Source: a virus (lineage: Duplodnaviria; Heunggongvirae; Uroviricota; Caudoviricetes). Taken from it: a stretch of 36,749 nucleotides of DNA. Made by a program: the position numbers and the translations under genes. Below are positions 1 through 36,749 of this stretch, one piece after another (positions within the stretch are counted from its first letter, which is position 1; each line of letters opens with the position of its first letter). The notes beneath the pieces are model-generated. The model worked only from the letters and a program-made list of their open reading frames with translations, did not search any database and was not told the DNA's origin. The DNA lies in IMG/VR virus record IMGVR_UViG_2579779084_000014, one strand, 5' to 3'.

Positions 1-1698
1 TCAGGCGATAAGGTCACCGTATTTTTCGCGCAGGCTCGTAGCCTGTTGGGCGTCTGCGGCAAGTTCGCTGCTGTTTGTTGGTGCGCCGGTGTTGCTGTGG
101 GTGTGGTTTGCAGTGTGTGTGGCCAGCAACTGAACCAGATCCAGAATATCAATCAACAACGTCAGCAGATTAAGTCCGGATTTTTCCCGTGAGTCACCGC
201 GACCAATAAATACTGTCGGGGCTGTAAACTCCAGGCCACCGTCCGCTCGGCATGTTCTGCGGCCTCCCACGTTTTCAGTAAGGTCGTGTTCAATCGTGGA
301 TGTAGCCCCTTTGAGTTTAGTCAGCAAATCCTGCGCTACCATCTGGATATGCTCACTGGCTGCGATCGCGTAATGGCCGGTAGTAAGGTGCTCTATTTGT
401 CCTGCCATTAGCTTGCTGGTTCCCAGAACGCTGGTTATATCGTTTGCCTGTACTGTGGTTGTTCTGGTTGTTGTTGTGCGTTCCTCCTGATCGCTGTTAA
501 TGGTTCGCCGGGCTGAATGTTCTCTGATTTGCTGGTCGGTTTCTCTGTGCCAGCTTCCGTCAGCCGTGACGCGCTGAAACACTTCTGCGCGCTGTTGCTG
601 CAGCTGTTCGCCGGGCTTTACATCAGGCAGGTTATGGCCAGCGGGTAAGATTTGCCTGATAACGGGTTTGTCCGGACGTCCTTCAATGTTGGATATTTCC
701 ACGATGGTGCCTGCCGGTGGGTAGGCAAAACATCCCGCCTCACTGCCAGCCATGGGGACGGGGAGCGGTACTGCCGGGTAAACGGGCGTGTCGCTTTTAT
801 CGTTGCCGTTCTCATCAAGCAACTGCACATCGACGGCGTAGCGTGGGCGGAAACTGTCGGCCACATCGCCCAGGGTGGTGGGCTCCGTTGGCGCAATGAC
901 GCGCGCCAGCCGGGTATGTAGCGTACCGCTGGCCAGTTCCGGGAACTGTGTTTCCATTTGTCTGCGTAATGGTGATTTGGAAACAGGGTTACCCGTGGCG
1001 GTAAGGCGCTCCCATGTCAGGGTCATTTTCTCGTTGTTGAGGGCTACACGGGTAATGCGCCCGGCCGGTAGGTTCACGCCCGGTCGCACAGTTTCCATAA
1101 ACATGATGTCGATGCTGTTTCCGCCGCTTTGCCCGAGTGTGTACTGTTGCGGAATATCCGGCATTGTAATACTGGCAAATCGTGAATCAGCTGCGCTTCC
1201 CACAAATACAGAACCGTCCGGCATAGGGTGCCAGACGTAATCGCTGATACTGAATGCTCGCCCCAGTTGGCTGAGCAGTTGTGCTCCGCTGCCGCTGTGG
1301 GTGATGTAGGGAGTTGGTATACTGGCATAATCCGCATCCGGAGTGATAAAAACGATACCGCTTTGTCGCCCCAGATTATCGAGTACCCCCCGCAACGTCG
1401 GGTGTTGCATGGAGCAAGGGAAATCAAAATCCAGCACAGCAGCCGCTTCACGAATAAAAAGGCGACGTGAGCCATTTTCAGCAGGTTGATCGCGCTCAAT
1501 GTAGCCGGAGAAATAGCGCCATGCTTCACCGTCACGGCCGAGATCAATTTGTACCATTGCGCCGGCAAGGCTGTGTTCGGGTGACAGATTGTTAACAGAA
1601 ATGAAGCCACGACCGGCAGCATTCAGGGTAAGAACAAGGTTTATATCGGCAATTTCCACCCGTTCGCCATTAATCATACAGCGTTGTATTAATTTCAT
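1..1698 (-). CDS. hypothetical large protein, C-terminally truncated by the window edge (at least 565 aa)
   Basis: Long uninterrupted ORF coupled to the upstream 191-aa ORF; Thr-rich stretch TTTTRTTTV and His-rich ATHTANHTHSNTGAPT near the window edge; no family recognised. Confidence 0.55.
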   Translation of the reverse strand: MKLIQRCMINGERVEIADINLVLTLNAAGRGFISVNNLSPEHSLAGAMVQIDLGRDGEAWRYFSGYIERDQPAENGSRRLFIREAAAVLDFDFPCSMQHPTLRGVLDNLGRQSGIVFITPDADYASIPTPYITHSGSGAQLLSQLGRAFSISDYVWHPMPDGSVFVGSAADSRFASITMPDIPQQYTLGQSGGNSIDIMFMETVRPGVNLPAGRITRVALNNEKMTLTWERLTATGNPVSKSPLRRQMETQFPELASGTLHTRLARVIAPTEPTTLGDVADSFRPRYAVDVQLLDENGNDKSDTPVYPAVPLPVPMAGSEAGCFAYPPAGTIVEISNIEGRPDKPVIRQILPAGHNLPDVKPGEQLQQQRAEVFQRVTADGSWHRETDQQIREHSARRTINSDQEERTTTTRTTTVQANDITSVLGTSKLMAGQIEHLTTGHYAIAASEHIQMVAQDLLTKLKGATSTIEHDLTENVGGRRTCRADGGLEFTAPTVFIGRGDSREKSGLNLLTLLIDILDLVQLLATHTANHTHSNTGAPTNSSELAADAQQATSLREKYGDLIA

Positions 1699-2270
1699 GT
1701 TTTCCCTTCCTTTTTCACGCTCCCGATGCCAATCCAGTCCAGCCCGGAGCCAATACCATCATTGATATTTTTCCAGAAAGTTTCCTGGGTATTCATTCCT
1801 TTATCCGGCGTCAGCTCACTGCCGTTCTGTGTCTGCTGCTTTGCGATTGTTTTCTGTGAGCCACTGCGTGCCGATGCTTTTTCCGGCACGCTTAATTTTT
1901 CCCTGAGAGTAAAGGTGACCTGCCAGTGCATTTTCCCCTGTTGTTCCGTGGCATCAATGCCACCAGAAAATACCCCCTGTCGCATATTGATTGCCTTCGC
2001 GGTAGCGTTGGCAATGCGATACGTTTTTTTAGCTCCGTTACTTTCTGTTGCCTCCGCAAGCTGAAAAATACGGGTCAGAATAGCTTCATCGTTAAAGTCA
2101 ATAACCCCCGACACGCGCAGCTCTTTAGCCTTGTTTCCCTGCTGAGCGCTCGTGGTGCTGGTTGACTGTCCGGACATATCTTTATCCGGTAGTTGCATGG
2201 TGGCGCTGACGGTGATGTTGCGCAGCAGAATGGCTTCCCCGTCAAGTGCAAGGACAATCATCTGGGTCAT
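1695..2270 (-). CDS. hypothetical protein (191 aa)
   Basis: Co-directional ORF; overlaps the next ORF by 4 nt (ATGA-type coupling). Confidence 0.5.
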   Translation of the reverse strand: MTQMIVLALDGEAILLRNITVSATMQLPDKDMSGQSTSTTSAQQGNKAKELRVSGVIDFNDEAILTRIFQLAEATESNGAKKTYRIANATAKAINMRQGVFSGGIDATEQQGKMHWQVTFTLREKLSVPEKASARSGSQKTIAKQQTQNGSELTPDKGMNTQETFWKNINDGIGSGLDWIGIGSVKKEGKT

Positions 2271-2991
2271 GTAGTGCTTCCCTTAGTGATGAGAGATCAT
2301 CGCCGACGAACAGCATCACAGCTGTAAAAACCCACTCGGGGTGTGGGATGTTTTTTTGTATCAGCGCTGCGGCCTGGCTAAGGACTCCCTTGTAGCAAAA
2401 GCGCCACACCGGGCAAAATTTTTGCCGGAGTGCGGCCTGCTGATCAGCGATTTCCTGTAGAGCTTTATCTCTCGCATTCGCGAACTGACGCAGCTCTGAT
2501 GACAATGTTTCCGGTGATGTGGCAGCAGGAGTAGCTGCCTGTGCAATGGTTGCAGCCAGCGACATGCTGCGAGTGGTCTGTGTCGACAGCATTATCGGTT
2601 CCGGAAGTGATGTTACCGGTCTGGCGGGGATTTGCATTCTGCTGATGGTCAGCGAAAGTTGGCTGGAGATCATACGGGACATTCTCCCTATTTCTGGCAA
2701 CGGAAATGCACCTGAAAATTGTCTGGCAAGCGATAAAAACTCAGCAACAGACGGGGCGCAGAATAACATCGCCACGACGTCTTTTTGTGTATTTTCTGTC
2801 AGATACGGTAAAAGTGCAGACACTGCATTATCCGGACTGAGGTAGCGTCCCGATGGTGTGGTATTCCCTGTATTTACTGACCATGGGTGGAAACAAATCA
2901 TTGAACTGGTGATGTTTATGGGGTGCGGGTGCAGAATTGAGACCGCCCAGTCAGGGCGGTTATTTTTATTGTCTTTCAAATGAATATTCAT
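2242..2991 (-). CDS. hypothetical protein (249 aa; start uncertain)
   Basis: Co-directional ORF with a helical-looking C-terminal half; a GC-rich hairpin lies inside the first 20 codons, so the true start may be an internal Met. Confidence 0.4.
   Translation of the reverse strand: MNIHLKDNKNNRPDWAVSILHPHPINITSSMICFHPWSVNTGNTTPSGRYLSPDNAVSALLPYLTENTQKDVVAMLFCAPSVAEFLSLARQFSGAFPLPEIGRMSRMISSQLSLTISRMQIPARPVTSLPEPIMLSTQTTRSMSLAATIAQAATPAATSPETLSSELRQFANARDKALQEIADQQAALRQKFCPVWRFCYKGVLSQAAALIQKNIPHPEWVFTAVMLFVGDDLSSLREALHDPDDCPCT
2942..2970 (+). terminator. terminator-like hairpin ACCGCCC-AGTCA-GGGCGGT followed by TATTTTTATT (plus-strand orientation)
   Basis: 7-bp GC stem plus T-rich tail; lies inside the 5' end of the annotated 249-aa minus-strand ORF. 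Confidence 0.3.
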
Positions 2992-3023
2992 AGGTGTGTG
3001 AGATATTGCTGGTACTTGCGCGG

Positions 3024-4127
3024 TTACTGTCGGGAGGTTGTGGGTTGGTTATATAACTCCGTTGCAAAAATTATCTCTCCTTCAGTAAATGGGATATCTC
3101 CGTCAGGCTGTGTCGTAAAACTCTGTGAGACAGTCGTCCAGCTGTTTGTGTCAGCCTGCACGTCATTCTCTGTAACTGTTTCTCCTTCATGGCTTCCGCT
3201 TTTTACACTCCAGGCCAGGCAGTTATTGGGGGCGTCCGCACTGCGATAAGTGACAGCCGCCATAACTGCGACCAGATCGCCATTGCTGTTATCTACCGCA
3301 CCAAACGTAACCTGTGCCGCCTCCGGGGACGGTGAGAGCATCAGGTATCCGGCATTACTGTCAGAGGTGTTCAGTCCCGTGACGATATCTTTATCCAGCG
3401 AGTTTTTCGCACTCCCCCCGGTAAATGCGGTTACCGGGCTGTATCTGACCTCAATAGCCCCAAGCAGGGCGGGTTCCGCGCTGTTATTTTTTCCGTATGC
3501 CACTGTTCCACAGTACATATCACCCAGCATTAACGTGCCGGATGCACCTGATGAAAAAATATTGTCACCACTACCAATACTCACCTGAATTTTGTCAGTC
3601 CGGTCATCTGATACATAAAACGATGTATTTCCAGCTAATGAGCGGTTGCAGTACAGACTGGCTGAGACATAGCCGTTTTCGTTTCGCGTTGCGAAAATTT
3701 CATAGTAATAACTGGCTGCTTCATCAGGATACGGGGTTGTAAATGAATAGCCATTAATCCTGATGTGGGATGGCGAAGATGAATATTTCTTTCCCGCACT
3801 TAATGTCAGACGAAATCCCAGCTGTACAGCTGAGGCTTTTAAGTCCGGAAGTGTGCTGTACAGTGTGACATATGAGGGTGTCGTGAAAATCAGCCCCGTT
3901 CTTTCTACAGTATTTACGGCCTGAGTGCCACGACAGACGGATGTTACAGAACCGGACATATCATTGATAAGCGTGACACCGTTTTCGTTCAGTGCTGAAA
4001 TAATATTTGTTGAATAATAGTTCTCGCACAATCCCTCATTCGCCGGAATTTGTCGAAAACTTTCGAGTTTTATAATATTCAAGGTCTGCTTTCCTTTTGT
4101 GTCGGTTAATATATTTCTGAATACCAC
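3024..4127 (-). CDS. hypothetical Ser/Thr/Gly/Asn-rich protein (possible receptor-binding or tail-associated protein)
   Basis: 367-aa ORF 12 nt downstream of the Tfa-like gene; beta-rich S/T/G/N/Y composition; visibly AT-richer than the phage core. Confidence 0.5.
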   Translation of the reverse strand: MVFRNILTDTKGKQTLNIIKLESFRQIPANEGLCENYYSTNIISALNENGVTLINDMSGSVTSVCRGTQAVNTVERTGLIFTTPSYVTLYSTLPDLKASAVQLGFRLTLSAGKKYSSSPSHIRINGYSFTTPYPDEAASYYYEIFATRNENGYVSASLYCNRSLAGNTSFYVSDDRTDKIQVSIGSGDNIFSSGASGTLMLGDMYCGTVAYGKNNSAEPALLGAIEVRYSPVTAFTGGSAKNSLDKDIVTGLNTSDSNAGYLMLSPSPEAAQVTFGAVDNSNGDLVAVMAAVTYRSADAPNNCLAWSVKSGSHEGETVTENDVQADTNSWTTVSQSFTTQPDGDIPFTEGEIIFATELYNQPTTSRQ

Positions 4128-11160: not shown

Positions 11161-13433
11161 CAGTAAGTTCCTCCCGTGCCTCTGTTACCGTCCTGAAGGT
11201 TGTATTTGTTCACTGCTTCCGCCACAATCTGACCATCGAGCACCAGTTGTGTGGTGAAATTAATGGGGCTGGCAGGTGGACCCCAGTGCGTGAGGTATCC
11301 CGGCTGGGTGATGCGTCCGGGTTGCGTTGATACTGATTCAGGCGTTGTGTTTCCGGCGGCTTTGTTGACCTGCGCCGGTGATGGCAGGGCATCAGCTGCG
11401 GCTTTTTTCCTGTCTTCCTCCCAGCGCCTCAACCACTCTTCGTTTTCGGTGGAGTAGCCTTCCCCAAACTGCCACCACGGCTGGTATTTTTTGCGGGCAG
11501 CATCGATGATTTCCTGGGGATATCGGGCGCGGATGCGCTTCCAGCGTTCCTCGCTTCCTTCGACGGCGGCGTCTTCTTCCGGGCTGGTTGCGGTGGCCAG
11601 TGCCGTAACGGTGCCACCGAAAGAAAGCAGGCTACCGGCAATGCCGGGGAATTTAAATCCTTTGCCTTTTTTGACCGTGTTTTCAATTACATCACCGACA
11701 ACCTCGCCAGCCTTGCCACCGGTTTTACCCCCGGTCAGGATTTTGATCCCGGCCCATGTCAGAGCCGCTGCGGTCATCGCTTCAATGGCGGTCGTGGCAC
11801 CCACCACTGCCGTGGTCAGTCCCGGAAACTTTTCACCCGCCCAGCTTATGGCATCGGCCACAGTACCGGACGCATCAGCCAGCTTTTTCATGCTGTCCAT
11901 TTGTGAAAATTCAAGCGTGTTTTTGGCCTGTTCGGTTTTAAAGTCATTGAGGCCGGATATGAATTTAAAATCCACATCACCCGCGCGCTGACCTTCCGGC
12001 AGGGTGCGCTGCTGATTAATCGCGTCTTCAACCTTTTTCCGGTATTCAGGGTTGTTACGGTAAGCCAGCAACGCTTTTAACGCCTGTTGGTCTGCAACCA
12101 GTTTCCCGACACCAAAGCCTTCAAGGAGTTTTGCCATCGAATCATAAACAGCTGTCTGCTCGCCTTTATCCCGGGCGGAGGCCAGTTTCTTTTGCAACTC
12201 CTGAAAGCGTTTATCGCTGGCAACGATTTTGTCTATCAGACTGGACAGCGCATCTATCGGATCAAGCCCATGTTCGCGCGCCTGAACCAGCGTGCCGGAA
12301 AAATCAATTCCTTTACCGTTGTAATCAATGCTCTTTGCCGCTGTTTCAATATCGTGGCTGGTCAGTTTAGCCAGCAGGTTAAACACGTTATTTCCGGCCT
12401 CATCACTGCTTCCCGCCGTGATGGCGGCAGCTTCATTCAGCGCCAGAATCTTGACAAAATCATCCTTGCCTCTCATCCCCGCAGCTGACGCTGACCCCAG
12501 TTGCGAAGATAACCAGCGGGCCATGTCGCTCAGTTCAAAGCTACCTTCTTTGCCCGCTGCAATTGCCATATTCAGAACGGTGGAAATATCTTCATCCCTG
12601 AATCCAAAGGTCTTTTTACCCTTAAGCATCACATTAGCCAGGTCTGTCGCTGATGCACCGGAAGCCGTGGCGTATTTCATCAGTTCAGGCAGCCACTTAC
12701 TGGCTGTTTCAAATGAAATACCGCCATCTTTCAGCAGGGCATCCAGCGTTTCGGCGGCGTCTTCTTTCGTGCCGCCACCCCAGGTCACCGCGTTACGGAT
12801 GCTGTTTTTCATCTGCTCAAGACCAGCCCTGCGCCCCTCCAGCCCGCTATCACTGAAGGCGGTATTGGCCATCATTGCCAGCTGGCGTTCGTAGCTCATC
12901 TGCTTTTTGACCGGCTGCGCCATAATGGCAGCACCTGCTGCGATACCAGCGCCTGTTGTCACGGCATTCCCGCCAAATGCAGCCGCACGGGCAAAACGCC
13001 CCGGTTCGGGGATAACAGGCGTTTTCGCCATCTTCATCTGTGCCTGAGTGACGCCATCCAGTTCACGCTTGAGTGCCCGGGCTTTTTCCCGGGTGGCCTG
13101 CATGGCGCGTTCCTGCTCCTGCGCAGATTCAAAACCGGCACGAGCCAGACGGTTATAACTGGCAACCGTCAGATAAATTTCACGCCGGATCTCACGCTCT
13201 GCACGAATACCGAGCGTTTCCCGGGCACGGGCGGCACGCTGTATCTCTTTTGCGGCCTTTTTCGTGCTGTTAACGCTTTCCTGTCCGGTACGCCTCTGCT
13301 CTGCGCCTGCCTTCCGTGTTGCCTTTGTTACATCTTCGGTGGCTTTGATAACCTGTTTTTGTCCCTTTTCCAGAACCTGCGAGGCTTCATCCTTCGCAGT
13401 CAGGGTCATGCCAACTTTGAAATTACCGGCCAT
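11160..13433 (-). CDS. tail tape measure protein
   Basis: 757 aa, Ala/Lys/Glu-rich helical composition, canonical position. Confidence 0.85.
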   Translation of the reverse strand: MAGNFKVGMTLTAKDEASQVLEKGQKQVIKATEDVTKATRKAGAEQRRTGQESVNSTKKAAKEIQRAARARETLGIRAEREIRREIYLTVASYNRLARAGFESAQEQERAMQATREKARALKRELDGVTQAQMKMAKTPVIPEPGRFARAAAFGGNAVTTGAGIAAGAAIMAQPVKKQMSYERQLAMMANTAFSDSGLEGRRAGLEQMKNSIRNAVTWGGGTKEDAAETLDALLKDGGISFETASKWLPELMKYATASGASATDLANVMLKGKKTFGFRDEDISTVLNMAIAAGKEGSFELSDMARWLSSQLGSASAAGMRGKDDFVKILALNEAAAITAGSSDEAGNNVFNLLAKLTSHDIETAAKSIDYNGKGIDFSGTLVQAREHGLDPIDALSSLIDKIVASDKRFQELQKKLASARDKGEQTAVYDSMAKLLEGFGVGKLVADQQALKALLAYRNNPEYRKKVEDAINQQRTLPEGQRAGDVDFKFISGLNDFKTEQAKNTLEFSQMDSMKKLADASGTVADAISWAGEKFPGLTTAVVGATTAIEAMTAAALTWAGIKILTGGKTGGKAGEVVGDVIENTVKKGKGFKFPGIAGSLLSFGGTVTALATATSPEEDAAVEGSEERWKRIRARYPQEIIDAARKKYQPWWQFGEGYSTENEEWLRRWEEDRKKAAADALPSPAQVNKAAGNTTPESVSTQPGRITQPGYLTHWGPPASPINFTTQLVLDGQIVAEAVNKYNLQDGNRGTGGTY

Positions 13434-21784: not shown

Positions 21785-23372
21785 TCAGTCTCCCCCAGAT
21801 ATCCGCCACAAAGAACGCCTGTGTCAGCAACTGCCGCAGCGTGTCATCCGGCAGTTCCGGCCAGGCTTCCGCCAGTACGTTCATGGCCTCATCTGCATCA
21901 CGACCTTCCTGTATGGCCTGCACCAGAGGTGCCACCAGTTCGTTCATCCCCTGCGCAATGGCCTCTGCCGGAAGTTCTGCCCGGTCAATGGCGCGCTGTG
22001 CCGGGTCGTCCTCCCCGTTGTCCTGCTGACTGAGCACGGCAATATTCAGCCGTTCACGCAGCTGGCTGAGACCAGTCTGCACAGGGAGACGCTGAGCTAC
22101 CGGCACCAGTACCTCTTCGCCGTCTTTCGGGGTGGGAATACCGGTTTTTTGGCGTACCCACGACACCGGGATATCCTTCATCCCCACATTGTTAACCAGC
22201 ACGCTGACGGCTTCTGCCACACTCTTAATGTCGGCTTCCTGCTGCACATCAAACACCAGACGTGGCAGGCGACGCGGTGGGATATCCTGCCAGCCGTTGA
22301 GACTGGCCATCATCTGTATCAGACTACTGAACATGCCGGACAGCTGGCGAGCATCGGCGGTCAGAATGTCGTGCCGGACCTCGTTATGCACATTACCCAG
22401 CGCGTTGGTGGAGGATTTGCCGTCGGCCTGACTGGTCAGTGTACTGCCCAGGATCACTTTTGAGGTGGTACGCTCCGCCCATTCCACCATCGACATGAAC
22501 GCCTCCGGCCCGCCGGAGGCGGCCTCCTTGAATTCAATCTCGTTACCCTGAGGGAGTGCTGCCACCGCTTCATGGCCCAGATTGACCAGGGCTTCGAGAA
22601 TGTTGTCCCGGTCAGCATCACTGGTGCCCTGTGCATAGTAGGCAATGCGCGCCGGAAGACCGTAAATCTCCAGAAATTCCGCCATATCACGCAGCGCAAA
22701 GTTTTTAAACAGATACGGCCAGACCAGTACGCGGAACAGGCCGGATGAACCCAGGAACCCCGACCGGGCGTTGTAACGATGAACCAGCCAGCCGAACGGC
22801 CACAGCGCGGAACCGTCTTTACCATCTTCCCCACAGTTGCCGTCATCCAGCCGGAGTTCGTCATTGTGTTCCGGCAGGGTAATAAACCAGTTATGCGGTC
22901 GCAGCGTTACCGCATCCGGTAGCCACGTTTTGTCCACGAACGCCCAGCTGATTTCCTGACAGCTGAAACCGTAACCGACACTGCTCATCCCGTTGAGGAT
23001 GATGTCCTCCATATCCGGGATACCGTGCAGCCACTCATCCACGGCGGCGGCCAGCTCCTTTTCAGCCTTCGAGGCATTGCGGGGTGGCTCCACCGACCAG
23101 TCCAGCGTCAGCAACGCTTTTTTGCGCTTTTCCATCTCGGCGAACAGATGGCCGTCACGTTCTTCCATATCCGCAAACAGCATCGCCTGCGCCGGAAGAT
23201 AACCGCGTTCGGCTGCTTCCAGAATGCGCGGCAGTTTTCTGATGTTCAGACCACGCGACGGGTGGTCGGGATAAATGCGCAGCCGTTCCGCCACCCGGAC
23301 CGACTGCGTGGTTTTGAGTGCCTCACGTTTCAGCGGGCGTCCGTAAATATCAACAAGCTGTGCCATTACCAT
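21771..23372 (-). CDS. portal protein (Mu gp29-like)
   Basis: 533 aa, position after terminase, Mu gp29-like sequence character. Confidence 0.8.
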   Translation of the reverse strand: MVMAQLVDIYGRPLKREALKTTQSVRVAERLRIYPDHPSRGLNIRKLPRILEAAERGYLPAQAMLFADMEERDGHLFAEMEKRKKALLTLDWSVEPPRNASKAEKELAAAVDEWLHGIPDMEDIILNGMSSVGYGFSCQEISWAFVDKTWLPDAVTLRPHNWFITLPEHNDELRLDDGNCGEDGKDGSALWPFGWLVHRYNARSGFLGSSGLFRVLVWPYLFKNFALRDMAEFLEIYGLPARIAYYAQGTSDADRDNILEALVNLGHEAVAALPQGNEIEFKEAASGGPEAFMSMVEWAERTTSKVILGSTLTSQADGKSSTNALGNVHNEVRHDILTADARQLSGMFSSLIQMMASLNGWQDIPPRRLPRLVFDVQQEADIKSVAEAVSVLVNNVGMKDIPVSWVRQKTGIPTPKDGEEVLVPVAQRLPVQTGLSQLRERLNIAVLSQQDNGEDDPAQRAIDRAELPAEAIAQGMNELVAPLVQAIQEGRDADEAMNVLAEAWPELPDDTLRQLLTQAFFVADIWGRLNADS

Positions 23373-25006
23373 CCTCCTGAACCAAAACGCCCGCCACGGT
23401 CACGCCCGGTGCTGCGTGGGGTGTGTATCTGAAATTTTGCGCTGCGCGATACCGCCAGCGTCCACAGCATGTGCAGACAGTCCGGGCCATCATCGTGGTC
23501 GGCTTTGGGGTAGTGGCGCAGCTGGTCAATCAGCGTCTGATGTGTGTGGCTGATACGAATCAGGCCGTTGGCCATATGCGGCTGAAGGGATTCGATACGC
23601 AGCGCTTTATCCTCCAGCGGGATGACCGGCAGCGCCGGAACCGGCACACCCAGCGCCGCCGAACGCTCAACCAGCACGGTACGCAGAAACTCCTGAAACT
23701 GAACGGACTCAAACGACCAGCACAGGCAGTGATATTCCCGCTGATACTTAATCACGTCTTCGATAAGTTTATCTGGCAGACGCCGGCGGATATCGGCTTC
23801 AACCACATCCAGTATGCCGGTAAAACGGTTAAAGCCCCCCACGAGAATGGCCGACGGGTCGCGGTTTTTATTCTTCTTCCCGAGACTGGGGTCAACAGCG
23901 CCGTAGAACACCCATTCATCAAGACGGTTAACCCAGAACTTAATGCAGCCCGCAAACAGCGCATCTTCACCGCTGACCGGGTCGTTCTGGTATTCAGAAT
24001 CAAAGGTGTCGTGACCGTCACGGACACGGATTTTCATCAGCGCCAGCAGGGGACGCGCCGCCCATGACACCACCGACCCGGCGAGCATGTCGGCTTCGTT
24101 CTGCCGGTAAAGTGCCTCCGCTGCTTCCGGCTGTTTGTTGCGGATGAGTTCTTCCCACTCGTCCCACAGCTTCATGTTGGCAGGCCACTGAATAACGGCC
24201 TTAAAGCGGGCCGTTTTCCACATCGGATTATTCAGCGTGCGCGACAGTACGGAGTCGTAATGCAGGATGGTTCCGATATAAATAATATCGGTTTTACCGC
24301 CAGCCTCGCCCAGCGGCATCACGGTTTTGGTGAGCCAGTCATGCAGCTTGTCGCGCTGCTCCGGGTTACGCACCATCTCGTCGTTCTCGATATCGTCGAG
24401 GATAACCAGGTCAGGACGGTACGGGCCGTGGCGCAGACCACGCAGTTTTTTACCACTACCGGCAACGGTCACCTTGATATTGTTGGCCGTGACGATGGTC
24501 CCCATACGCCAGACGCGACCCTGCCCGCACACTTCCGGGAAATCGTTTTTTAAACGGGGGTTAAACTCCAGTTCAGCCTTGATGGCTTCCAGCATCGGAT
24601 AAGCCTGGTCGATACTGTCCATAATGATGACCGGGTAATGCTTAATGGCCCGGATAATGGTCCACAGGGTAAACAGCTGAGTCACCAGCGTGGATTTTGC
24701 TTCACCACGGGGCGCGGCGATGGCGTCGTTCTCCGGGTCCGGGCTTGCCACAACCTGTGGCAGACGGCTGAACAGGTATTTATGCAGCTCACTTTTTGCC
24801 GGGTTGCGGACGTAGTGCGGGAAATAATTTTCGACAAAATAATCGTAGCCCGTCACCGGGTCGCAGACTGCCGCCCGGCGGGCCTGTGTGGCCTGCGGGT
24901 TAACATCGAACCCCAGACATTCAGCCTCGATGGTCTGGCGGAGGTTGGCGATGTACTCCTGCAGGCTTCTCTGAAACTCTTTAATGGAAAGTTTACGTTT
25001 TGCCAC
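23366..25006 (-). CDS. terminase large subunit (Mu gp28-like)
   Basis: ATPase plus nuclease-sized protein directly upstream of the portal; start placed at a GTG with AGGTG SD just after the MTase stop (the track TTG start at 25063 would overlap the MTase by 56 nt); start uncertain. Confidence 0.75.
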   Translation of the reverse strand: MAKRKLSIKEFQRSLQEYIANLRQTIEAECLGFDVNPQATQARRAAVCDPVTGYDYFVENYFPHYVRNPAKSELHKYLFSRLPQVVASPDPENDAIAAPRGEAKSTLVTQLFTLWTIIRAIKHYPVIIMDSIDQAYPMLEAIKAELEFNPRLKNDFPEVCGQGRVWRMGTIVTANNIKVTVAGSGKKLRGLRHGPYRPDLVILDDIENDEMVRNPEQRDKLHDWLTKTVMPLGEAGGKTDIIYIGTILHYDSVLSRTLNNPMWKTARFKAVIQWPANMKLWDEWEELIRNKQPEAAEALYRQNEADMLAGSVVSWAARPLLALMKIRVRDGHDTFDSEYQNDPVSGEDALFAGCIKFWVNRLDEWVFYGAVDPSLGKKNKNRDPSAILVGGFNRFTGILDVVEADIRRRLPDKLIEDVIKYQREYHCLCWSFESVQFQEFLRTVLVERSAALGVPVPALPVIPLEDKALRIESLQPHMANGLIRISHTHQTLIDQLRHYPKADHDDGPDCLHMLWTLAVSRSAKFQIHTPRSTGRDRGGRFGSGGW

Positions 25007-25007
25007 G

Positions 25008-25748
25008 TCACACCTGCACTGCTTCTGTCTGGGCTTTTTCGATACGTGCGCAGGCGATATCAAAATACTGGTTAGTCATTTCAATGCCGGTAAACCGTCC
25101 GCCACGGGCAAGTACAGGGATGGCGGTAGTGCCGCTTCCCATAAACGGATCAAGGACGTGCGCATCCGGTGTCAGCGGTTTAACCAGCTCAGCCATCAGC
25201 TGAACCGGCTTTGCGGTCATGTGCAGTTTTTCGGACGGGACGACACGCTGCGTAATCACACCCGGGAACGGGCCACCGTGCGGGCATTTGTCGAGTTTTC
25301 CGTTGCTGCCCCAGACCACATACTCGGCCTGATGCCGAAAATAGCCAGTGTGTGGCGCACGGGAAGCCTGCGTTTTATCCCAGACAACCAGACCACGCCA
25401 CAGCACACCACCGGCCTGAAATGCATCTGTAAGCGCCGGTAGTTGTCGCCAGTCACTGAACACCATGAAATAACCGCCGGAATTCAGCCTGTGCAATGCA
25501 TGAGATATCCACATGGAACACCAGAACGCCCAGCTGCGCTGGTCGCGGTTATCGCCGGTGAACTCGGCATACTGGGTGTGACCGATATACTTGTCCGAAG
25601 GGGCCATGCTGCGGTCTGATTTGTGTGTACCACCACTGCTGTAAGGCGGGTCGGTAATGACGGCATCAAAACGTTCGGATAACGCCGGCAGCACATCAAG
25701 AACATCACCGCAATACAACGTTGCGTTACCAATAATCTGTTTTTGCAT
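25008..25748 (-). CDS. DNA methyltransferase, beta-class amino-MTase (N6-adenine or N4-cytosine)
   Basis: 246 aa; catalytic motif IV DPPY near the N-terminus (ITDPPYSSGG), AdoMet motif I FMGSGTT near the C-terminus. Confidence 0.8.
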   Translation of the reverse strand: MQKQIIGNATLYCGDVLDVLPALSERFDAVITDPPYSSGGTHKSDRSMAPSDKYIGHTQYAEFTGDNRDQRSWAFWCSMWISHALHRLNSGGYFMVFSDWRQLPALTDAFQAGGVLWRGLVVWDKTQASRAPHTGYFRHQAEYVVWGSNGKLDKCPHGGPFPGVITQRVVPSEKLHMTAKPVQLMAELVKPLTPDAHVLDPFMGSGTTAIPVLARGGRFTGIEMTNQYFDIACARIEKAQTEAVQV

Positions 25749-25794
25749 TACAAATCCCGAATATCAGACGACCCGGAAAACCGGGCCGCTGTGG

Positions 25795-26295
25795 TTAACT
25801 GAAATTATCCTCAAGCTCTTTAGCGAAGCCTTCGAGCACCTCAAGAAACGGGGCATACTGCGTCGGGTGACGCTCCTTGATGAACGCGCCGAGCCGCTGC
25901 ACCACTTCCAGTGCCGTGGCGAGCCGGTCGGTTTCCGGCAGGATTTTTTTACTGCTGGCCACCGCCTTACTGAGACTGTCGGACAGACTCGCCAGCAGTT
26001 CGACGGACTCCTGCGGCGGGATGTCCGGGTTCTGGTTCAGCCGTTCAAGCGTCGTCTGACACTTCACCACCAGACTGATAAGCACGGTGCGGGCGACACT
26101 TTCCAGCCCGTCACCGGCGAGCGCGTGCGCGGCCCGCAGCTTGTCCCAGTCGTCGCCGTTCTTCATCGCCTGCGTTTTCCAGCGCCGCGCGGTGTCGTGC
26201 GGCACGGCGTACTTCATGGCGACGATATCCAGCGGAAGCTGGTCAAAGATGTACCCGTTACGGACTTTGTCCCTGATATCCTGTGACCACGCCAT
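25795..26295 (-). CDS. Mu gp27-like protein (proposed small terminase / DNA-binding)
   Basis: 166 aa; position immediately upstream of the large terminase module as in Mu; family similarity by recollection. Confidence 0.55.
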   Translation of the reverse strand: MAWSQDIRDKVRNGYIFDQLPLDIVAMKYAVPHDTARRWKTQAMKNGDDWDKLRAAHALAGDGLESVARTVLISLVVKCQTTLERLNQNPDIPPQESVELLASLSDSLSKAVASSKKILPETDRLATALEVVQRLGAFIKERHPTQYAPFLEVLEGFAKELEDNFS

Positions 26296-26501
26296 TAAGT
26301 GTCCTTCTGAGCCTGTTCAATCCTGCGCTGAACTTCGTCGGGATTTTCAAGAACAAATACGTTTTTCCCGGTATCCAGTTCAATGACCGTGCCATCATGT
26401 GTACCGTACTGACGGTAAAAATGGGTGATTCGTTCAGCGAGCACCATGACAGCGCCAGCACCTCCTGAACCTGTGTATTCTGTAAATCTGATAATGCTCA
26501 C
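26295..26501 (-). CDS. hypothetical small protein (68 aa)
   Basis: Co-directional ORF; its end overlaps the start of the next gene (ATGA-type junction). Confidence 0.35.
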   Translation of the reverse strand: MSIIRFTEYTGSGGAGAVMVLAERITHFYRQYGTHDGTVIELDTGKNVFVLENPDEVQRRIEQAQKDT

Positions 26502-26521: not shown

Positions 26522-26704
26522 TCAGTTCTGCGAACACTGCCGGATACCGTCAATAATCCGGCAGACCTGCGCCGCCGCGTCAAACAGCTGGCCCGCTCTG
26601 TTAATGTCTGAGCATCCCACCGGAAGCAACATCATCAGAAACAGGGCCAGAACACAGCGCGCGGCTTTACGTGGCGTTCTGTGGGGCCAGCGACTTCTGT
26701 TCAT
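26522..26704 (-). CDS. putative lipoprotein (possible o-spanin)
   Basis: 60 aa; basic N-terminus, hydrophobic LALFLMMLLPVGC with Cys after the hydrophobic core; lies just downstream of the endolysin. Confidence 0.4.
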   Translation of the reverse strand: MNRSRWPHRTPRKAARCVLALFLMMLLPVGCSDINRAGQLFDAAAQVCRIIDGIRQCSQN

Positions 26705-28260: not shown

Positions 28261-28728
28261 TTAATCAAAAAGCCCCACCTGGGTGGGGCTTTTCAGCGAA
28301 GTCTGTTTTTGTCGTCGGTGTATCAGCTGCCATGCGTACCGGTCTGAAATCCCGTAGCGGGGACAGAGCAGTGCCAGCGCCTGCCGGTGTGAGCATCCGT
28401 CTTTTACATGCTGCTGTAAATCAGCCATAAAACGGGTGTTACGCAGGGCACGTAACGCATGATCACAACGGGGAATGTAAAACGGTGCACCGCCAAGAAA
28501 GCGGATCAGTTTGTTGATTTCGTCTTCGGTCAGCACATCATGTAACAGGGCATGGACACCGCCGGTGCGTCCGGCGTGTGCGCCGGTTTTACCGCTTAAC
28601 GTCACGCCACCAAAAGAACGGATTAACCGGGTCAGGGCGGGGAAGCCAATCACGCTAATCAGTTGCTGTACGGAATCGGGCAGCAGTGCCTGCGCATCGC
28701 GAAGATCTGTTTCACTGAAGGTCTGCAT
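28261..28728 (-). CDS. Mor/C-family transcriptional activator (middle/late gene activator)
   Basis: 155 aa; C-terminal HTH-like CPRYGISDRYAWQLIHRR resembling the Mor/C family; position between gemA and lysis genes. Confidence 0.65.
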   Translation of the reverse strand: MQTFSETDLRDAQALLPDSVQQLISVIGFPALTRLIRSFGGVTLSGKTGAHAGRTGGVHALLHDVLTEDEINKLIRFLGGAPFYIPRCDHALRALRNTRFMADLQQHVKDGCSHRQALALLCPRYGISDRYAWQLIHRRQKQTSLKSPTQVGLFD

Positions 28729-28757: not shown

Positions 28758-28763
28758 ATTATA
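28758..28763 (-). promoter_or_regulatory. candidate -10 hexamer (TATAAT) for the Mor/C-like gene
   Basis: Exact TATAAT on the minus strand about 30 nt upstream of the ATG at 28728, downstream of the terminator; GGAGA SD follows. Confidence 0.3.
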
Positions 28764-28786
28764 GCCATACATGATCGCCTGTACAG

Positions 28787-28817
28787 ACCACAAAAAAGCC
28801 CCTGCAAGGCAGGGGCT
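28787..28817 (-). terminator. rho-independent terminator between gemA-like and Mor/C-like genes
   Basis: Perfect 9-bp GC-rich stem AGCCCCTGC/GCAGGGGCT with a 3-nt loop, followed on the minus strand by TTTTTTG. Confidence 0.55.
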
Positions 28818-33794: not shown

Positions 33795-34688
33795 TCAGTG
33801 AATTAACATTTCTGCGAATTTATCTATGGCCTGCACACTGACCGGCGCATCGCTGATATCGCAAATCCGGTACACACCGCGCGCCAGTTTGAACAGGCGG
33901 CGGGCATTACCCAGCGAGCGCGCGTAAAGCGCCTCGCTGATTTCCGGTTCTGCTGCTTCCGGCATCAGCCCGGTGGCTATCTGGTTAAAATCTTCCTGCG
34001 CCAGCGTGTCGCCCAGGTTAAGCGCCAGCGCCACGCGGCTGTATAACTGCGCAAATTCACCACGACGCCCCTTGAGATTAATCAGAAGACGAGGCATACC
34101 CGCCAGGACAACCCCGATACCCGCTTTATCATGCAGACGGCGCAGAACCTCCAGTGCGCGATAGGGGAGCAGTTCAGCTTCGTCCACCATCAGCAGACGA
34201 CCGGAATCACGCAGTTCGCGCACACAGGCATCAATCAGTTCGTGAATGTTGCCGCGAACCTTTACCCCCAGCTGGCGGCACAACTCCTCAAGCAGTGTCC
34301 TGGCTGTATAGCCCGGGTCAGCCTCAATCAGGACCGCATCCCGGTTTCTGGCGGCGTATTCACGCAGAATCATTGTTTTGCCAAGGCCAGCTGCGCCATA
34401 CAGCACACAGATTTCACATTCCAGGTGAGCGTAGGCCAGCACCTCCAGTCCTTTGGCAGCCATACCGGTGGTCACAAACTTTGCTTTAATACGGCGGCTG
34501 TTTTCCTTTTCCCGCTCACGGGTCACAAAGGCAGAAATGCGTTCTTCAATATCAGCCATATCGCCCTGATATTTACCCTGCAAATACTGGTTGATAACGG
34601 CGCTGCTACGGCCAATTGCACGGGCGACGTGGGTCTGCGTATAGCCGCGACGGGCCATTACGTCATTTAATTGCGTAATTAAACTCAT
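33795..34688 (-). CDS. B: Mu B-like transposition ATPase / target DNA activator
   Basis: 297 aa; Walker A motif GAAGLGKT; N-terminal HTH-like segment; adjacent to the transposase. Confidence 0.85.
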   Translation of the reverse strand: MSLITQLNDVMARRGYTQTHVARAIGRSSAVINQYLQGKYQGDMADIEERISAFVTREREKENSRRIKAKFVTTGMAAKGLEVLAYAHLECEICVLYGAAGLGKTMILREYAARNRDAVLIEADPGYTARTLLEELCRQLGVKVRGNIHELIDACVRELRDSGRLLMVDEAELLPYRALEVLRRLHDKAGIGVVLAGMPRLLINLKGRRGEFAQLYSRVALALNLGDTLAQEDFNQIATGLMPEAAEPEISEALYARSLGNARRLFKLARGVYRICDISDAPVSVQAIDKFAEMLIH

Positions 34689-34706
34689 AATTAAATACCT
34701 TTTAAA

Positions 34707-36749
34707 TTAACGGTTGTTTGTGCCGTTTTTCTTTAAATTGCGCTCGCGTTCAGATGCGAATAAATAAAGTTCTTCTTTTTCCTTTTTCTCCGGGCGCTCC
34801 AGACCAAATCCAAAATTAAACTCAGATTTCTGCGTAATAGCCGGGGTAAGCTCGCGTTTAGCCTCTTCGATTTTCTGCGTGGCCCGTGCAATGCGGCCTC
34901 TGACGCGTTTCTCCAGTTTTTGCTCGATAACTGGTTTAGCGAAGGCATCAACCTTATTGCCGTTCCAGATGGCATCGCAGATATAAGAGCCATCAGCCCG
35001 ACGGACAATGACACTGTTTGCGTCATGAATATCGTAACTGACCCTGACTTCATTCCCGTGCTCTGCGGCCAGTTCATACGAGTAATAAATATTGTTGAAT
35101 AACTGAATTTCCCCGCGAAATGTTTTGCGCGTCACTTCCGGCCTGAACATTTCATGCAGTTCTTCCTGCGACAGAAAATCAATTTCAACATTCTGCTCTT
35201 TTATCAGTTTCCGGCGATACGCTGCCGGGCTGTAATATTCGCCATCCTCTTTGCGGGGAAGGCTGCTGTGTGGCCGGTTGTTATAGCGTCTGACCTCCAG
35301 CTCTATGGCGGCCATCAGTTGCTCAAAGGTGGGGATTTCATCCCTCGCCTTAACCTGCCGTTTTGTCAGTTCTTTCCCTTTGTGGGTGGCCTTAATGGCC
35401 GACTGCATAATCCGTTGCTGCATCATTACGGTTTCCTTGTCTGCATCCTTTGCGCAGTACGTCTGGAAACTCAGTGCCACGTCTTTGGGTATTCCTTTGT
35501 TTGCCCGTTCTATTACCCCGCGCCCCTGCGGGTTACCCGGTATCCCCGTGTGATGCTCCACACCCAGCCGGGGCAGAATCCCGGTAATATCGGCATCAAG
35601 CACCCGGTTTTTTTCGCCGCCCCCGTTATCGGAATAATAAATCAGCGGTATCCCGTGCTGTGCCATGCCGTAACGCAACGCATCAGCAACGGCTATCACG
35701 TTTTCCGACAGGGACAGTGACCAGCCCACAACAAAGCGCTGCCCCGCATCCATAACCAGCGTCACTTCTGGCCGGAAAATATTGCCGGTCAGGGGGTTAA
35801 ACGCGGTCATTTTCATACAGTGACCATCCCCGACCCATACCGCATTAACCGGTAATGATGTCCACTCGCGCCGCACAAAGGGATTGAGCGAACGCCAGGC
35901 TGAACCTGTGGAGCGGAAACGCTCCTTAACAATCACCGGGACGCTGCTTAACACTCGTCTTACTGCGTGAACTGAAGGCAGTGCCGCCAGCATTCCCGCA
36001 TCATTCGCGTGTTTCTCATGCCACCAGGCTGAAAACTCGCGATAAGCGTATTCAACGGTCGGGCGCTTCCATGAGCGATAGAACATAAAGAAATCGCTCA
36101 GCCACCAGACCTGCTCCCACGGAGTTCCCTTATGATGACCGGGAGCCAGTAACGCCAGTAACTGATTGGCATCACCGCGCGCCATCACCCAGCTGGAGTA
36201 CCAGCTATCCAGGCTGCCGGTGCTGACACCGGTTCGCTTTCCCTGACGTGCATTTGCAGTATTCGCTGCTTCGATAATGCGGTCAGGTAACGCCCCCATG
36301 CGCACACCATCAACGATGTGCTTTAACGCGGCCTTCCTGGTCATTCCGGCGTATTCACGCAGTTTATGCACTTCAGTAGCCAGCAATATCCGCGCATCAG
36401 CAATGGCCTTTTGCTTGTCGGTCAGTGCCTGGACTTCGCGTAATGCCAGTTCCGGGCATTTGACCATCACTTCCAGTTCATCGCGAACGGCGACGTTTTT
36501 AACTGCCTTCTGCTCAACCACGGCGGGCAGTTGTGCATCTTCCAGGACCTGATGAGTCAGGCGCTTACGTAAAACTTTCTGCGCTTCAGCGGGCAGGCTG
36601 TCGATGTGATACTCGAATGCTTTTGTGCCTTCACGCTTGCGCTTCCATTCCGGGTGCGTCTCTGTGATCCGATTGAGCGTCCATCGCACCCCCTGAACTG
36701 TACCGGGCAAACGAGGAAGACCGGCCAGCTCATTGGCTGAATAAAACAT
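34707..36749 (-). CDS. A: Mu-type DDE transposase (MuA-like); ORF reaches the window edge so the true start may lie beyond 36749
   Basis: 680 aa. N-terminus (ANELAGLPRLPGT...) resembles the MuA N-terminus; catalytic-core-like motifs VWVGDGH and YYSDNGGG; sits directly upstream of a MuB-like gene as in Mu. Confidence 0.85.
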   Translation of the reverse strand: MFYSANELAGLPRLPGTVQGVRWTLNRITETHPEWKRKREGTKAFEYHIDSLPAEAQKVLRKRLTHQVLEDAQLPAVVEQKAVKNVAVRDELEVMVKCPELALREVQALTDKQKAIADARILLATEVHKLREYAGMTRKAALKHIVDGVRMGALPDRIIEAANTANARQGKRTGVSTGSLDSWYSSWVMARGDANQLLALLAPGHHKGTPWEQVWWLSDFFMFYRSWKRPTVEYAYREFSAWWHEKHANDAGMLAALPSVHAVRRVLSSVPVIVKERFRSTGSAWRSLNPFVRREWTSLPVNAVWVGDGHCMKMTAFNPLTGNIFRPEVTLVMDAGQRFVVGWSLSLSENVIAVADALRYGMAQHGIPLIYYSDNGGGEKNRVLDADITGILPRLGVEHHTGIPGNPQGRGVIERANKGIPKDVALSFQTYCAKDADKETVMMQQRIMQSAIKATHKGKELTKRQVKARDEIPTFEQLMAAIELEVRRYNNRPHSSLPRKEDGEYYSPAAYRRKLIKEQNVEIDFLSQEELHEMFRPEVTRKTFRGEIQLFNNIYYSYELAAEHGNEVRVSYDIHDANSVIVRRADGSYICDAIWNGNKVDAFAKPVIEQKLEKRVRGRIARATQKIEEAKRELTPAITQKSEFNFGFGLERPEKKEKEELYLFASERERNLKKNGTNNR

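Follow-up and report, generated by a model that had tools for sequence, protein, structure and literature searches.

The window analysed in this work, which is the whole stretch of 36,749 nucleotides, is an Escherichia coli Mu-like prophage that is read on the minus strand. The first part of the gene order consists of transposase, MuB-like ATPase, GemA, Mor-family activator, holins, M15 endolysin, and DUF1804. These are followed by a DNA methyltransferase (MTase), the large terminase (terL), a Mu-type portal, F, protease, major head protein, and tail genes. E. coli RIVM_C036569 and other genomes share the 3-kb stretch around MTase with 100% identity. A megablast search of the locus against deposited phage genomes gave no match, and this type of prophage is without a close sequenced phage in that collection. 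The features of the locus and the evidence for each of them are listed below.

25008..25748, minus strand: coding sequence of an orphan beta-class DNA methyltransferase, probably N6-adenine, of 246 aa with an ATG start (mechanical ORF list, profiles, RefSeq identity, fold)
25641..25652, minus strand: codons of catalytic motif IV, D33-P-P-Y36 (translation; invariant in 118 homologues)
25125..25145, minus strand: codons of SAM-binding motif I, F202-M-G-S-G-T-T208 (translation; F202, G204, and S205 invariant)
25422..25526, minus strand: mosaic patch inside MTase, residues ~75-109 (block identities against the E2348/69 allele)
25017..25759, minus strand: cassette-specific DNA of 743 nt, replaced by the 7 nt TGTATAC in MTase-less sisters (alignment of filled and empty junctions)
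25004..25016, minus strand: shared backbone junction CAGGTGTGACGTG (sequence; identical in filled and empty junctions)
23366..25006, minus strand: large terminase terL with a GTG start (identical RefSeq locus, PHROG 38 at 4.5e-144, TIGR01630)
25765..25791, minus strand: GC-rich hairpin GGCCCGG-UUUU-CCGGGUC just past the DUF1804 stop (fold; kept in MTase-less prophages)
25795..26295, minus strand: DUF1804 DNA-binding protein of the D3112 orf24 type in the gp27 (small terminase) position (PF08822 at 2.4e-52, PHROG 756)
28261..28728, minus strand: Mor-family transcription activator, upstream of the co-directional late gene string with MTase (PF08765)

The DUF1804 gene lies upstream of MTase and terL lies downstream, with its GTG at 25006 as in the RefSeq record that is 100% identical. 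The sequence from the MTase stop to the terL start reads CAG GTG TGA C GTG. The spacer is 1 nt, in agreement with the 1-2 nt given in a preliminary description of this DNA that was made from the sequence. MTase ends within the junction CAGGTGTGACGTG with its final two sense codons and TGA; the junction also contains the ribosome-binding site of terL (AGGTG) and the terL GTG, and the MTase stop codon overlaps that ribosome-binding site. The same stop-N-GTG layout is also present in the Serratia and Intestinirhabdus loci. The ribosome-binding site before the MTase ATG is weak (GGGA). An MTase-TerL fusion by read-through or frameshift at TGA-C-GTG was considered and rejected, as a TAA lies five codons past the TGA and no slippery site was seen in the junction.

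One uninterrupted string of co-directional genes, from the holins to the head genes, lies downstream of the Mor gene and contains MTase. Just upstream of the Mor gene are a terminator-like hairpin (28797-28817) and a promoter-like site (28758-28785), which is the only one on that strand. A scan of the MTase strand between 24500 and 28750 identified no sigma-70-like promoter. We infer late expression of MTase from its place in this co-directional string downstream of the Mor gene and from the result of the promoter scan.

The preliminary description placed MTase between a gp27-like gene and the large terminase gene. The position stands, but the likeness to gp27 does not hold at the sequence level, where BLASTP of the DUF1804 protein against Mu gp27 showed no similarity (E=0.47). 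BLASTP of the window terL against Mu gp28 also showed no similarity. The DUF1804 protein is 50% identical to D3112/DMS3 orf24, and the flanking genes are of the D3112/DMS3/B3 type with ~50% identity. On these sequence comparisons, Mu is not supported as the phage with which to compare the flanking genes. The statement that Mu acquires no such gene at the analogous junction is correct, since the gap between gp27 and gp28 in Mu is only 7 nt.

Family, fold, and solitary status of the methyltransferase

The DPPY motif (residues 33-36) is N-terminal of the FMGSGTT motif (residues 202-208), which is the order of the beta class. D33-P-P-Y36 as well as F202, G204, and S205 are unchanged across the alignment of MTase with 118 homologues. 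The PF01555 N6_N4_Mtase profile matched MTase with an E-value of 1.7e-24 and 87.5 bits against a cut-off of 26.7, which makes it a member of that family. PHROG 67 'DNA methyltransferase' matched at 1.4e-53, and the PADLOC model MTase_II PDLC03321 (a Type II methyltransferase model) covers the whole protein with 218 bits. More than 7,500 homologues with E<=1e-10 are present in protein databases. The AlphaFold model that was built on the homologue alignment acquired a pLDDT of 89.8 and a pTM of 0.89. The nearest solved structures identified by Foldseek (probability 1.00) are M1.HpyAVI, CcrM, M.BceJIV, M.MboIIA, M.RsrI, and M.PvuII. All of them are beta-class DNA amino-methyltransferases, with TM scores of ~0.65-0.8 and identity of ~20%. 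The enzyme family, the motif order, and the fold are established by these results, which bear out the earlier reading of a 246-aa beta-class amino-methyltransferase with DPPY ahead of FMGSGTT.

The dN/dS of MTase is ~0.09 with the Serratia gene as the comparison and ~0.22 with the E2348/69 allele. Judged by these ratios, purifying selection acts on MTase. The observation of MTase is real and far beyond chance, given the profiles, the motifs, the fold, and the purifying selection. The alleles of E. coli differ sharply at the mosaic patch. Against the E2348/69 allele, identity is 69% in the 100-nt block from 25408, 91% in the block after it, and 92-100% in the other blocks; 17 of the 22 amino-acid differences are located at residues 75-109.

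The best NCBIfam model is PRK13699 (NF010253), which we take, going by its description, to be a model of M.EcoGIX-type plasmid single-strand methyltransferases. This model aligns to MTase almost end to end, but the score of 76.7 bits is below the cut-off of 244 and MTase is not a member. The equivalog models of CcrM (NF050803; 51.6 bits against a cut-off of 830) and YhdJ (NF008572; 41.3 bits against a cut-off of 292) align only at the motif I region. The target base of MTase is most probably N6-adenine, since motif IV is DPPY, and enzymes with Asp in this motif provide the adenine analogy (PMC3299994, PMC7544214).

MTase is identical to RefSeq WP_001171799.1, which PGAP has named 'DNA-methyltransferase'. 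RefSeq thus already annotates MTase, also in the reference EPEC strain E2348/69, and the protein belongs to a very large family of phage methyltransferases. Literature searches with the accession, with Mu-like prophages that have methyltransferase and terminase, with transposable-phage morons, and with the methylome of E2348 found no study of this gene. These searches also gave no experimental activity, target, or timing for MTase or any close homologue.

The PADLOC models of restriction endonucleases gave no match among the 51 ORFs of the window. The PADLOC families that matched in the window number 42, where 40 are MTase itself and one is the MuB-like ATPase. No nuclease is annotated in the complete identical prophage of RIVM_C036569. 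These findings are consistent with the claim of the preliminary description that no restriction endonuclease is adjacent to MTase. That description had also named a cognate endonuclease or specificity subunit beside MTase in related elements as one finding that would overturn its reading. Among the neighbour families of 29 clusters of MTase homologues, the 25 commonest include no endonuclease, and the neighbours are phage structural and packaging genes. The neighbours of MTase in its relatives are the same as in the window (DUF1804 and terL). MTase is an orphan, with no cognate endonuclease or specificity subunit next to it, and is not paired with an adjacent endonuclease as in a Type II restriction-modification system.

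An optional cassette between DUF1804 and terL

The alignment of filled and empty junctions shows that the cassette (25017-25759) consists of the ORF and 11 nt upstream and that it replaces TGTATAC. The end of the MTase reading frame, two sense codons and the TGA, falls within the sequence common to the empty site, which is the ribosome-binding region of terL (AGGTG). The empty junctions are annotated as DUF1804 and terL with a spacer of 52 nt. The junction family was surveyed in 5,426 complete E. coli genomes and was identified in 55 of them, with MTase present in 36 and the junction empty in 20. The flanks of the 36 filled and 20 empty junctions are 97-100% identical, and those of the MTase-less E. 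coli prophages are ~97-98% identical to the window. Prophages that lack exactly the MTase gene support the reading of MTase as an insertion-type cassette between its flanking genes, as had been proposed. The GC3 of MTase (58%) is below that of DUF1804 (77%) and terL (67%), and this is consistent with a separate origin of MTase from the flanking genes.

MTase is an optional one-gene cassette in an accessory slot between DUF1804 and terL. It is present or absent at a fixed junction between near-identical phages, as expected of a moron or accessory gene. It does not acquire the promoter and terminator of its own that are found in a classical moron: no promoter-like site is predicted nearby on its strand, and the hairpin upstream belongs to the backbone. 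The MTase-less sister prophages were searched for an annotated mom, com, or other methyltransferase and none was identified. MTase is therefore dispensable and its benefit conditional, since the sisters carry no annotated substitute.

The order of DUF1804, MTase, and terL is kept in Mu-like prophages of other genera, where the identity of MTase to the window protein is as follows.

Intestinirhabdus: 77%
Buttiauxella: 78%
Serratia: 76%
Limnobaculum: 67%

The divergence of MTase is in step with that of DUF1804, portal, and F in Intestinirhabdus, Buttiauxella, and one IMG/VR locus with a 67%-identical MTase, and the cassette has therefore long been resident in this enterobacterial lineage. The empty-site remnant TGTATACC, TGTATAC(C), is also present upstream of MTase in the Serratia locus. 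This remnant and the deep conservation of the position hint that the empty junctions of E. coli may be secondary losses. The boundaries of the cassette, its presence/absence polymorphism, and the conservation of its position are established.

The slot between DUF1804 and terL holds other genes in other phages: an opposite-strand ORF in Pseudomonas phage D3112 and three small ORFs in Klebsiella phage ST405-OXA48phi1.1. Other late-operon junctions hold members of the MTase family with 50-65% identity. In other Mu-like contigs, a family member follows Mor or F, or occupies the terL-portal or portal-F junction; one is located just upstream of HNH-terS-terL in an E. coli lambdoid prophage, and others follow terL and portal in Acidovorax prophages. 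In P2-like elements the family is located by the tail sheath/tube genes or a resolvase, and in the P2-like Escherichia phage Chuche the gene is located behind a Com-like regulator and next to the integrase. This work adds that MTase is a cassette, where exactly the cassette begins and ends, how often it occurs, and that its slot takes variable cargo.

The preliminary description noted a small hairpin, CCCGG-AAAA-CCGGG, before the MTase ATG. It is located at 25772-25785, within a full stem that reaches from 25765 to 25791 on the mRNA strand. The hairpin is real, with a fold of -24.2 kcal/mol over 76 nt (z=-3.1), but it has no special tie to MTase since the MTase-less prophages also have it with a perfect stem. 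The Intestinirhabdus and Buttiauxella loci also have this stem past the stop codon of DUF1804, with different loops. The hairpin gave no Rfam match and is not followed by a canonical U-tract. It belongs to the backbone spacer between DUF1804 and terL, outside the cassette, and could be a stabiliser of an mRNA 3' end or a weak attenuator. A role as a translational operator of the Com type, or as an MTase-specific terminator, was rejected because of the hairpin in MTase-less prophages, the absence of com, and the lack of a U-tract and an Rfam match.

Proposed function and alternative explanations

The explanation that we favour, and regard as probable, is that MTase is a solitary beta-class SAM-dependent methyltransferase, carried as an optional cassette and made late, that pre-protects phage DNA against restriction. 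The preliminary description proposed the same role, which is a reasonable proposal. The enzyme is presumably active, and by analogy with known systems an anti-restriction role is the most likely one. The cassette, which brings no predicted promoter or terminator, would be read within the late transcript of the lysis, packaging, and head genes, and the Mor-family activator probably switches on this transcript. The location of the MTase stop inside the ribosome-binding region of terL would preserve the translation of terL, which is probably coupled to that of MTase. MTase would be made alongside the terminase during lytic growth only and would be silent in the lysogen. It would then methylate a short target sequence on replicating phage DNA ahead of headful packaging, and the progeny DNA would reach the next host pre-protected against restriction systems that cut overlapping sites. 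Methylation restricted to induction was reportedly described in Burkholderia phages by Smith and Jeddeloh in 2005. The host DNA would unavoidably be methylated too, because Mu-type replication leaves phage copies integrated; such a lack of phage-specific targeting does not contradict the explanation. The weak GGGA ribosome-binding site and the MTase-less sisters without a substitute count against it.

MTase may be an adenine methyltransferase of relaxed specificity, or one that is active on single strands, that acts as a broad stand-in for Mom (cf. M.EcoGII, M.EcoGIX, and Hia5). This reading is rather unlikely, and it is a variant of the favoured explanation that does not exclude it. It is in line with the small size of MTase (246 aa) and the lack of a visible separate recognition domain, with the minimal enzyme M1.HpyAVI as the closest solved fold, with PRK13699 as the best NCBIfam model that aligns nearly end to end, and with the absence of mom and com in complete sister prophages. 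However, beta-class enzymes of about this size are mostly site-specific, the score for PRK13699 (76.7 bits against 244) places MTase outside that family, and the specificity is not readable from the MTase sequence. Non-specific methyltransferases of prophages and plasmids have been documented in E. coli (PMC5778455, PMC7736820, PMC3299994), where M.EcoGIX acts on SAY in single-stranded DNA (PMC7736820). Enzymes of the Hia5 type are alpha-class (PMC3299994), and M.EcoGII has 349 aa. A role in lysogenic conversion, where MTase expressed from the prophage would alter the host methylome for epigenetic regulation or pre-protect the host against incoming restriction-modification, is quite improbable. 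MTase persists in diverse lineages of E. coli, E2348/69 among them, and regulatory roles are known for orphan enzymes such as Dam and CcrM (PMC7544214, PMC4659465). However, the promoter scan gives no site for MTase, the gene is translationally tight inside the late packaging operon, which shares its strand, and comparable prophage methyltransferases are silent in lysogens (PMC5778455, PMC4659465).

Across several types of phage, family members recur beside genes for terminase, portal, and head, which would also fit a role in phage development or packaging control, such as methylation-dependent recognition or cleavage by the terminase. The cleavage of P1 pac needs Dam methylation and is the model for this role. 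Such a role for MTase is very unlikely, since ~97-98% identical prophages with the same terL and DUF1804 are without MTase, and the encoded packaging machinery therefore does not need it. Moreover, the P2-like elements have the family by tail genes, and 'moron' slots of the late operon explain the adjacency as well. It is extremely improbable that MTase is the methyltransferase partner in a restriction-modification pair or a non-functional remnant in decay. PADLOC places the MTase family under Type II methyltransferase models, but no endonuclease was identified by the models in the window, in the annotation of the relatives, or among the commonest neighbour families. The catalytic motifs are all invariant and the dN/dS is well below 1, which argues against decay.

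If the favoured reading of MTase is right, little changes, since orphan methyltransferases borne by phages have long been known to evade restriction. The 36 filled and 20 empty junctions with their near-identical flanks are a natural test pair for the benefit of a late-operon methyltransferase to a transposable phage. In Mu/D3112-like phages the junction between DUF1804 and terL takes variable cargo and may merit mining for counter-defence genes. It is conceivable, albeit unlikely, that late-head-operon junctions including this one are dedicated counter-defence slots in transposable phages, and that MTase with relaxed specificity is made there with the terminase and provides Mom-like broad protection in mom-less lineages. 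The allele patch at residues 75-109 would then be a diversified specificity or dimer interface.

Comparison with known systems

The preliminary description reported that mom is absent at the right end. This is not readable from the window, which stops short of the right end of the prophage: the right-end repeat motif GCCCAGAAT is present at both ends of the RIVM_C036569 prophage and is absent from the window. The absence of mom is correct for the complete relatives RIVM_C036569 (with MTase) and STEC346 (without MTase), where no mom, com, or other methyltransferase beyond MTase is annotated. Upstream of MTase, two small ORFs (26295-26501 and 26522-26704) were inspected and no Cys-rich Com-like ORF was identified; the ORF at 26522-26704 looks like a lipoprotein.

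It has been reported that mom-less Mu-like prophages carry methyltransferases instead (PMC3299994). Hin1523, Nma1821, and Hia5, which replace mom in FluMu and Pnm1, are alpha-class and are located downstream of com (PMC3299994). These enzymes and Mu Mom likewise modify the DNA of transposable phages, with an assumed anti-restriction role (PMC3299994). However, Mu Mom is not a methyltransferase and is located at the right end downstream of com. The Hia5-type enzymes exhibit the alpha-class (Dam-like) order and are also located at the right end after com, whereas MTase is beta-class with the opposite motif order and is located in the packaging module without com. MTase is therefore not of the Hia5/Hin1523 type.

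The Bpm of Bordetella phage BPP-1 and the methyltransferase of Chuche are 52-53% identical to MTase over ~94% of the length. Both share with MTase the PHROG 67/PDLC03321 family, the size, the motifs, and the solitary, phage-borne status. They differ in phage type and position, where the Chuche enzyme follows a Com-like translational regulator and MTase is without com. The literature searches gave no published target for Bpm, the Chuche enzyme, or others of this family.

M1.HpyAVI (PDB 5HFJ/5HEK) from Helicobacter pylori, a minimal N6-adenine enzyme, is the best PDB sequence match to MTase (E=5.6e-14) and also the best fold match, with a TM of 0.68 when normalised by the query and 0.81 when normalised by the target. 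It is similar to MTase in length, in the order of DPPY to FxGxG, and in having no large recognition domain. Unlike MTase, it is chromosomal, and with ~22% identity its specificity is not transferable. M.EcoGIX and M.BceJIII are, like MTase, small beta-class orphans on mobile elements, but they are located in the leading region of plasmids, are specific to single strands, and act against restriction at transfer, whereas MTase is in a phage context (PMC7736820).

M.EcoGI and M.EcoGII of E. coli O104:H4 are similar to MTase as beta-class orphans that are cargo of E. coli prophages (PMC5778455). They have 349 aa and belong to another subfamily, compared to the 246 aa of MTase, and are likened to it by description. 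Both are non-specific adenine methyltransferases that are silent in the lysogen and have been proposed to act on induction against restriction (PMC5778455). Such silence in the lysogen has been reported for M.EcoGI, M.EcoGII, and M.EcoMIV/V, all encoded by E. coli prophages (PMC5778455, PMC4659465). Among these systems, MTase is an ordinary orphan phage methyltransferase.

Tail-fibre module and prophage ends

E. coli strain 47258 has an HP1-like prophage, located at the tRNA-Leu locus, whose terminal tail-fibre/baseplate module is 99.7% identical to four genes at the left end of the window. This strain also carries the Mu-like prophage, at a different site. The four leftmost genes of the window are as follows.

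1-4082: 565-aa ORF; HP1_ORF34 baseplate protein; 249-aa ORF; 351-367-aa ORF

The complete Mu-like prophage of E. coli RIVM_C036569, which is 100% identical to the window around the methyltransferase, has sequence in common with the window only from 3106 onwards and then stops. Based on these two sequence comparisons, the tail-fibre end of the window is mosaic and the true right end of the prophage lies outside the window.

Both ends of the RIVM_C036569 prophage exhibit repeated motifs that are probably transposase-binding sites; the window contains no copy of the end-repeat motif. The repeats are located as follows.

L002 (locus holding one prophage end), ~34600-34820, and L003 (locus holding the other), ~13060-13130: end repeats with motifs GCCCAGAAT / ATTCTGGGC

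The sister prophage of E. coli STEC346, which does not have the methyltransferase, has a truncated PAAR-domain gene on one side and, on the other, a gene for a zincin-like metallopeptidase toxin domain that is also truncated. These two truncated genes suggest insertion into a single toxin gene, which fits the random transposition expected of a Mu-type element. Two copies of the prophage family are found on records of ~249 kb that were counted as plasmids.

Intergenic hairpins

The interval between gemA and the Mor-family gene contains a strong terminator-like hairpin followed by a promoter-like site, which is the only one on the minus strand. This layout looks like a predicted early-transcript terminator followed by a predicted middle promoter.

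28758-28817: terminator-like hairpin AGCCCCTGC...GCAGGGGCT, then T6; promoter-like site

Another hairpin, which is GC-rich, is located immediately past the DUF1804 stop (25765-25791) and is kept both with and without the methyltransferase. Its stem is conserved in other genera and its loop is variable. The hairpin has no U-tract and matched no Rfam family.

Methyltransferase and its junction

The methyltransferase alleles of the window and of E. coli E2348/69 exhibit ~69% nucleotide identity at 25422-25526 (residues ~75-109), and most of the gene outside this patch, together with its flanks, is 92-100% identical. Of the 22 amino-acid differences between the two alleles, 17 fall in the patch, which corresponds to the long helix and strand that follow the motif IV loop. 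Gene conversion may have produced this patch, which may affect the dimer or DNA interface.

The DUF1804/terL junction, which holds the methyltransferase in the window, is occupied in other transposable phages by unrelated genes that are uncharacterised. D3112 has a 178-aa ORF there on the opposite strand, and Klebsiella phage ST405-OXA48phi1.1 has three small ORFs. This differing cargo suggests that the junction is a general slot for accessory genes.

The P2-like Escherichia phage Chuche carries a 53%-identical methyltransferase directly downstream of a gene annotated as 'gpCom control of modification'. In this arrangement, the partner of a Mu-style Com regulator is a beta-class methyltransferase and not Mom.
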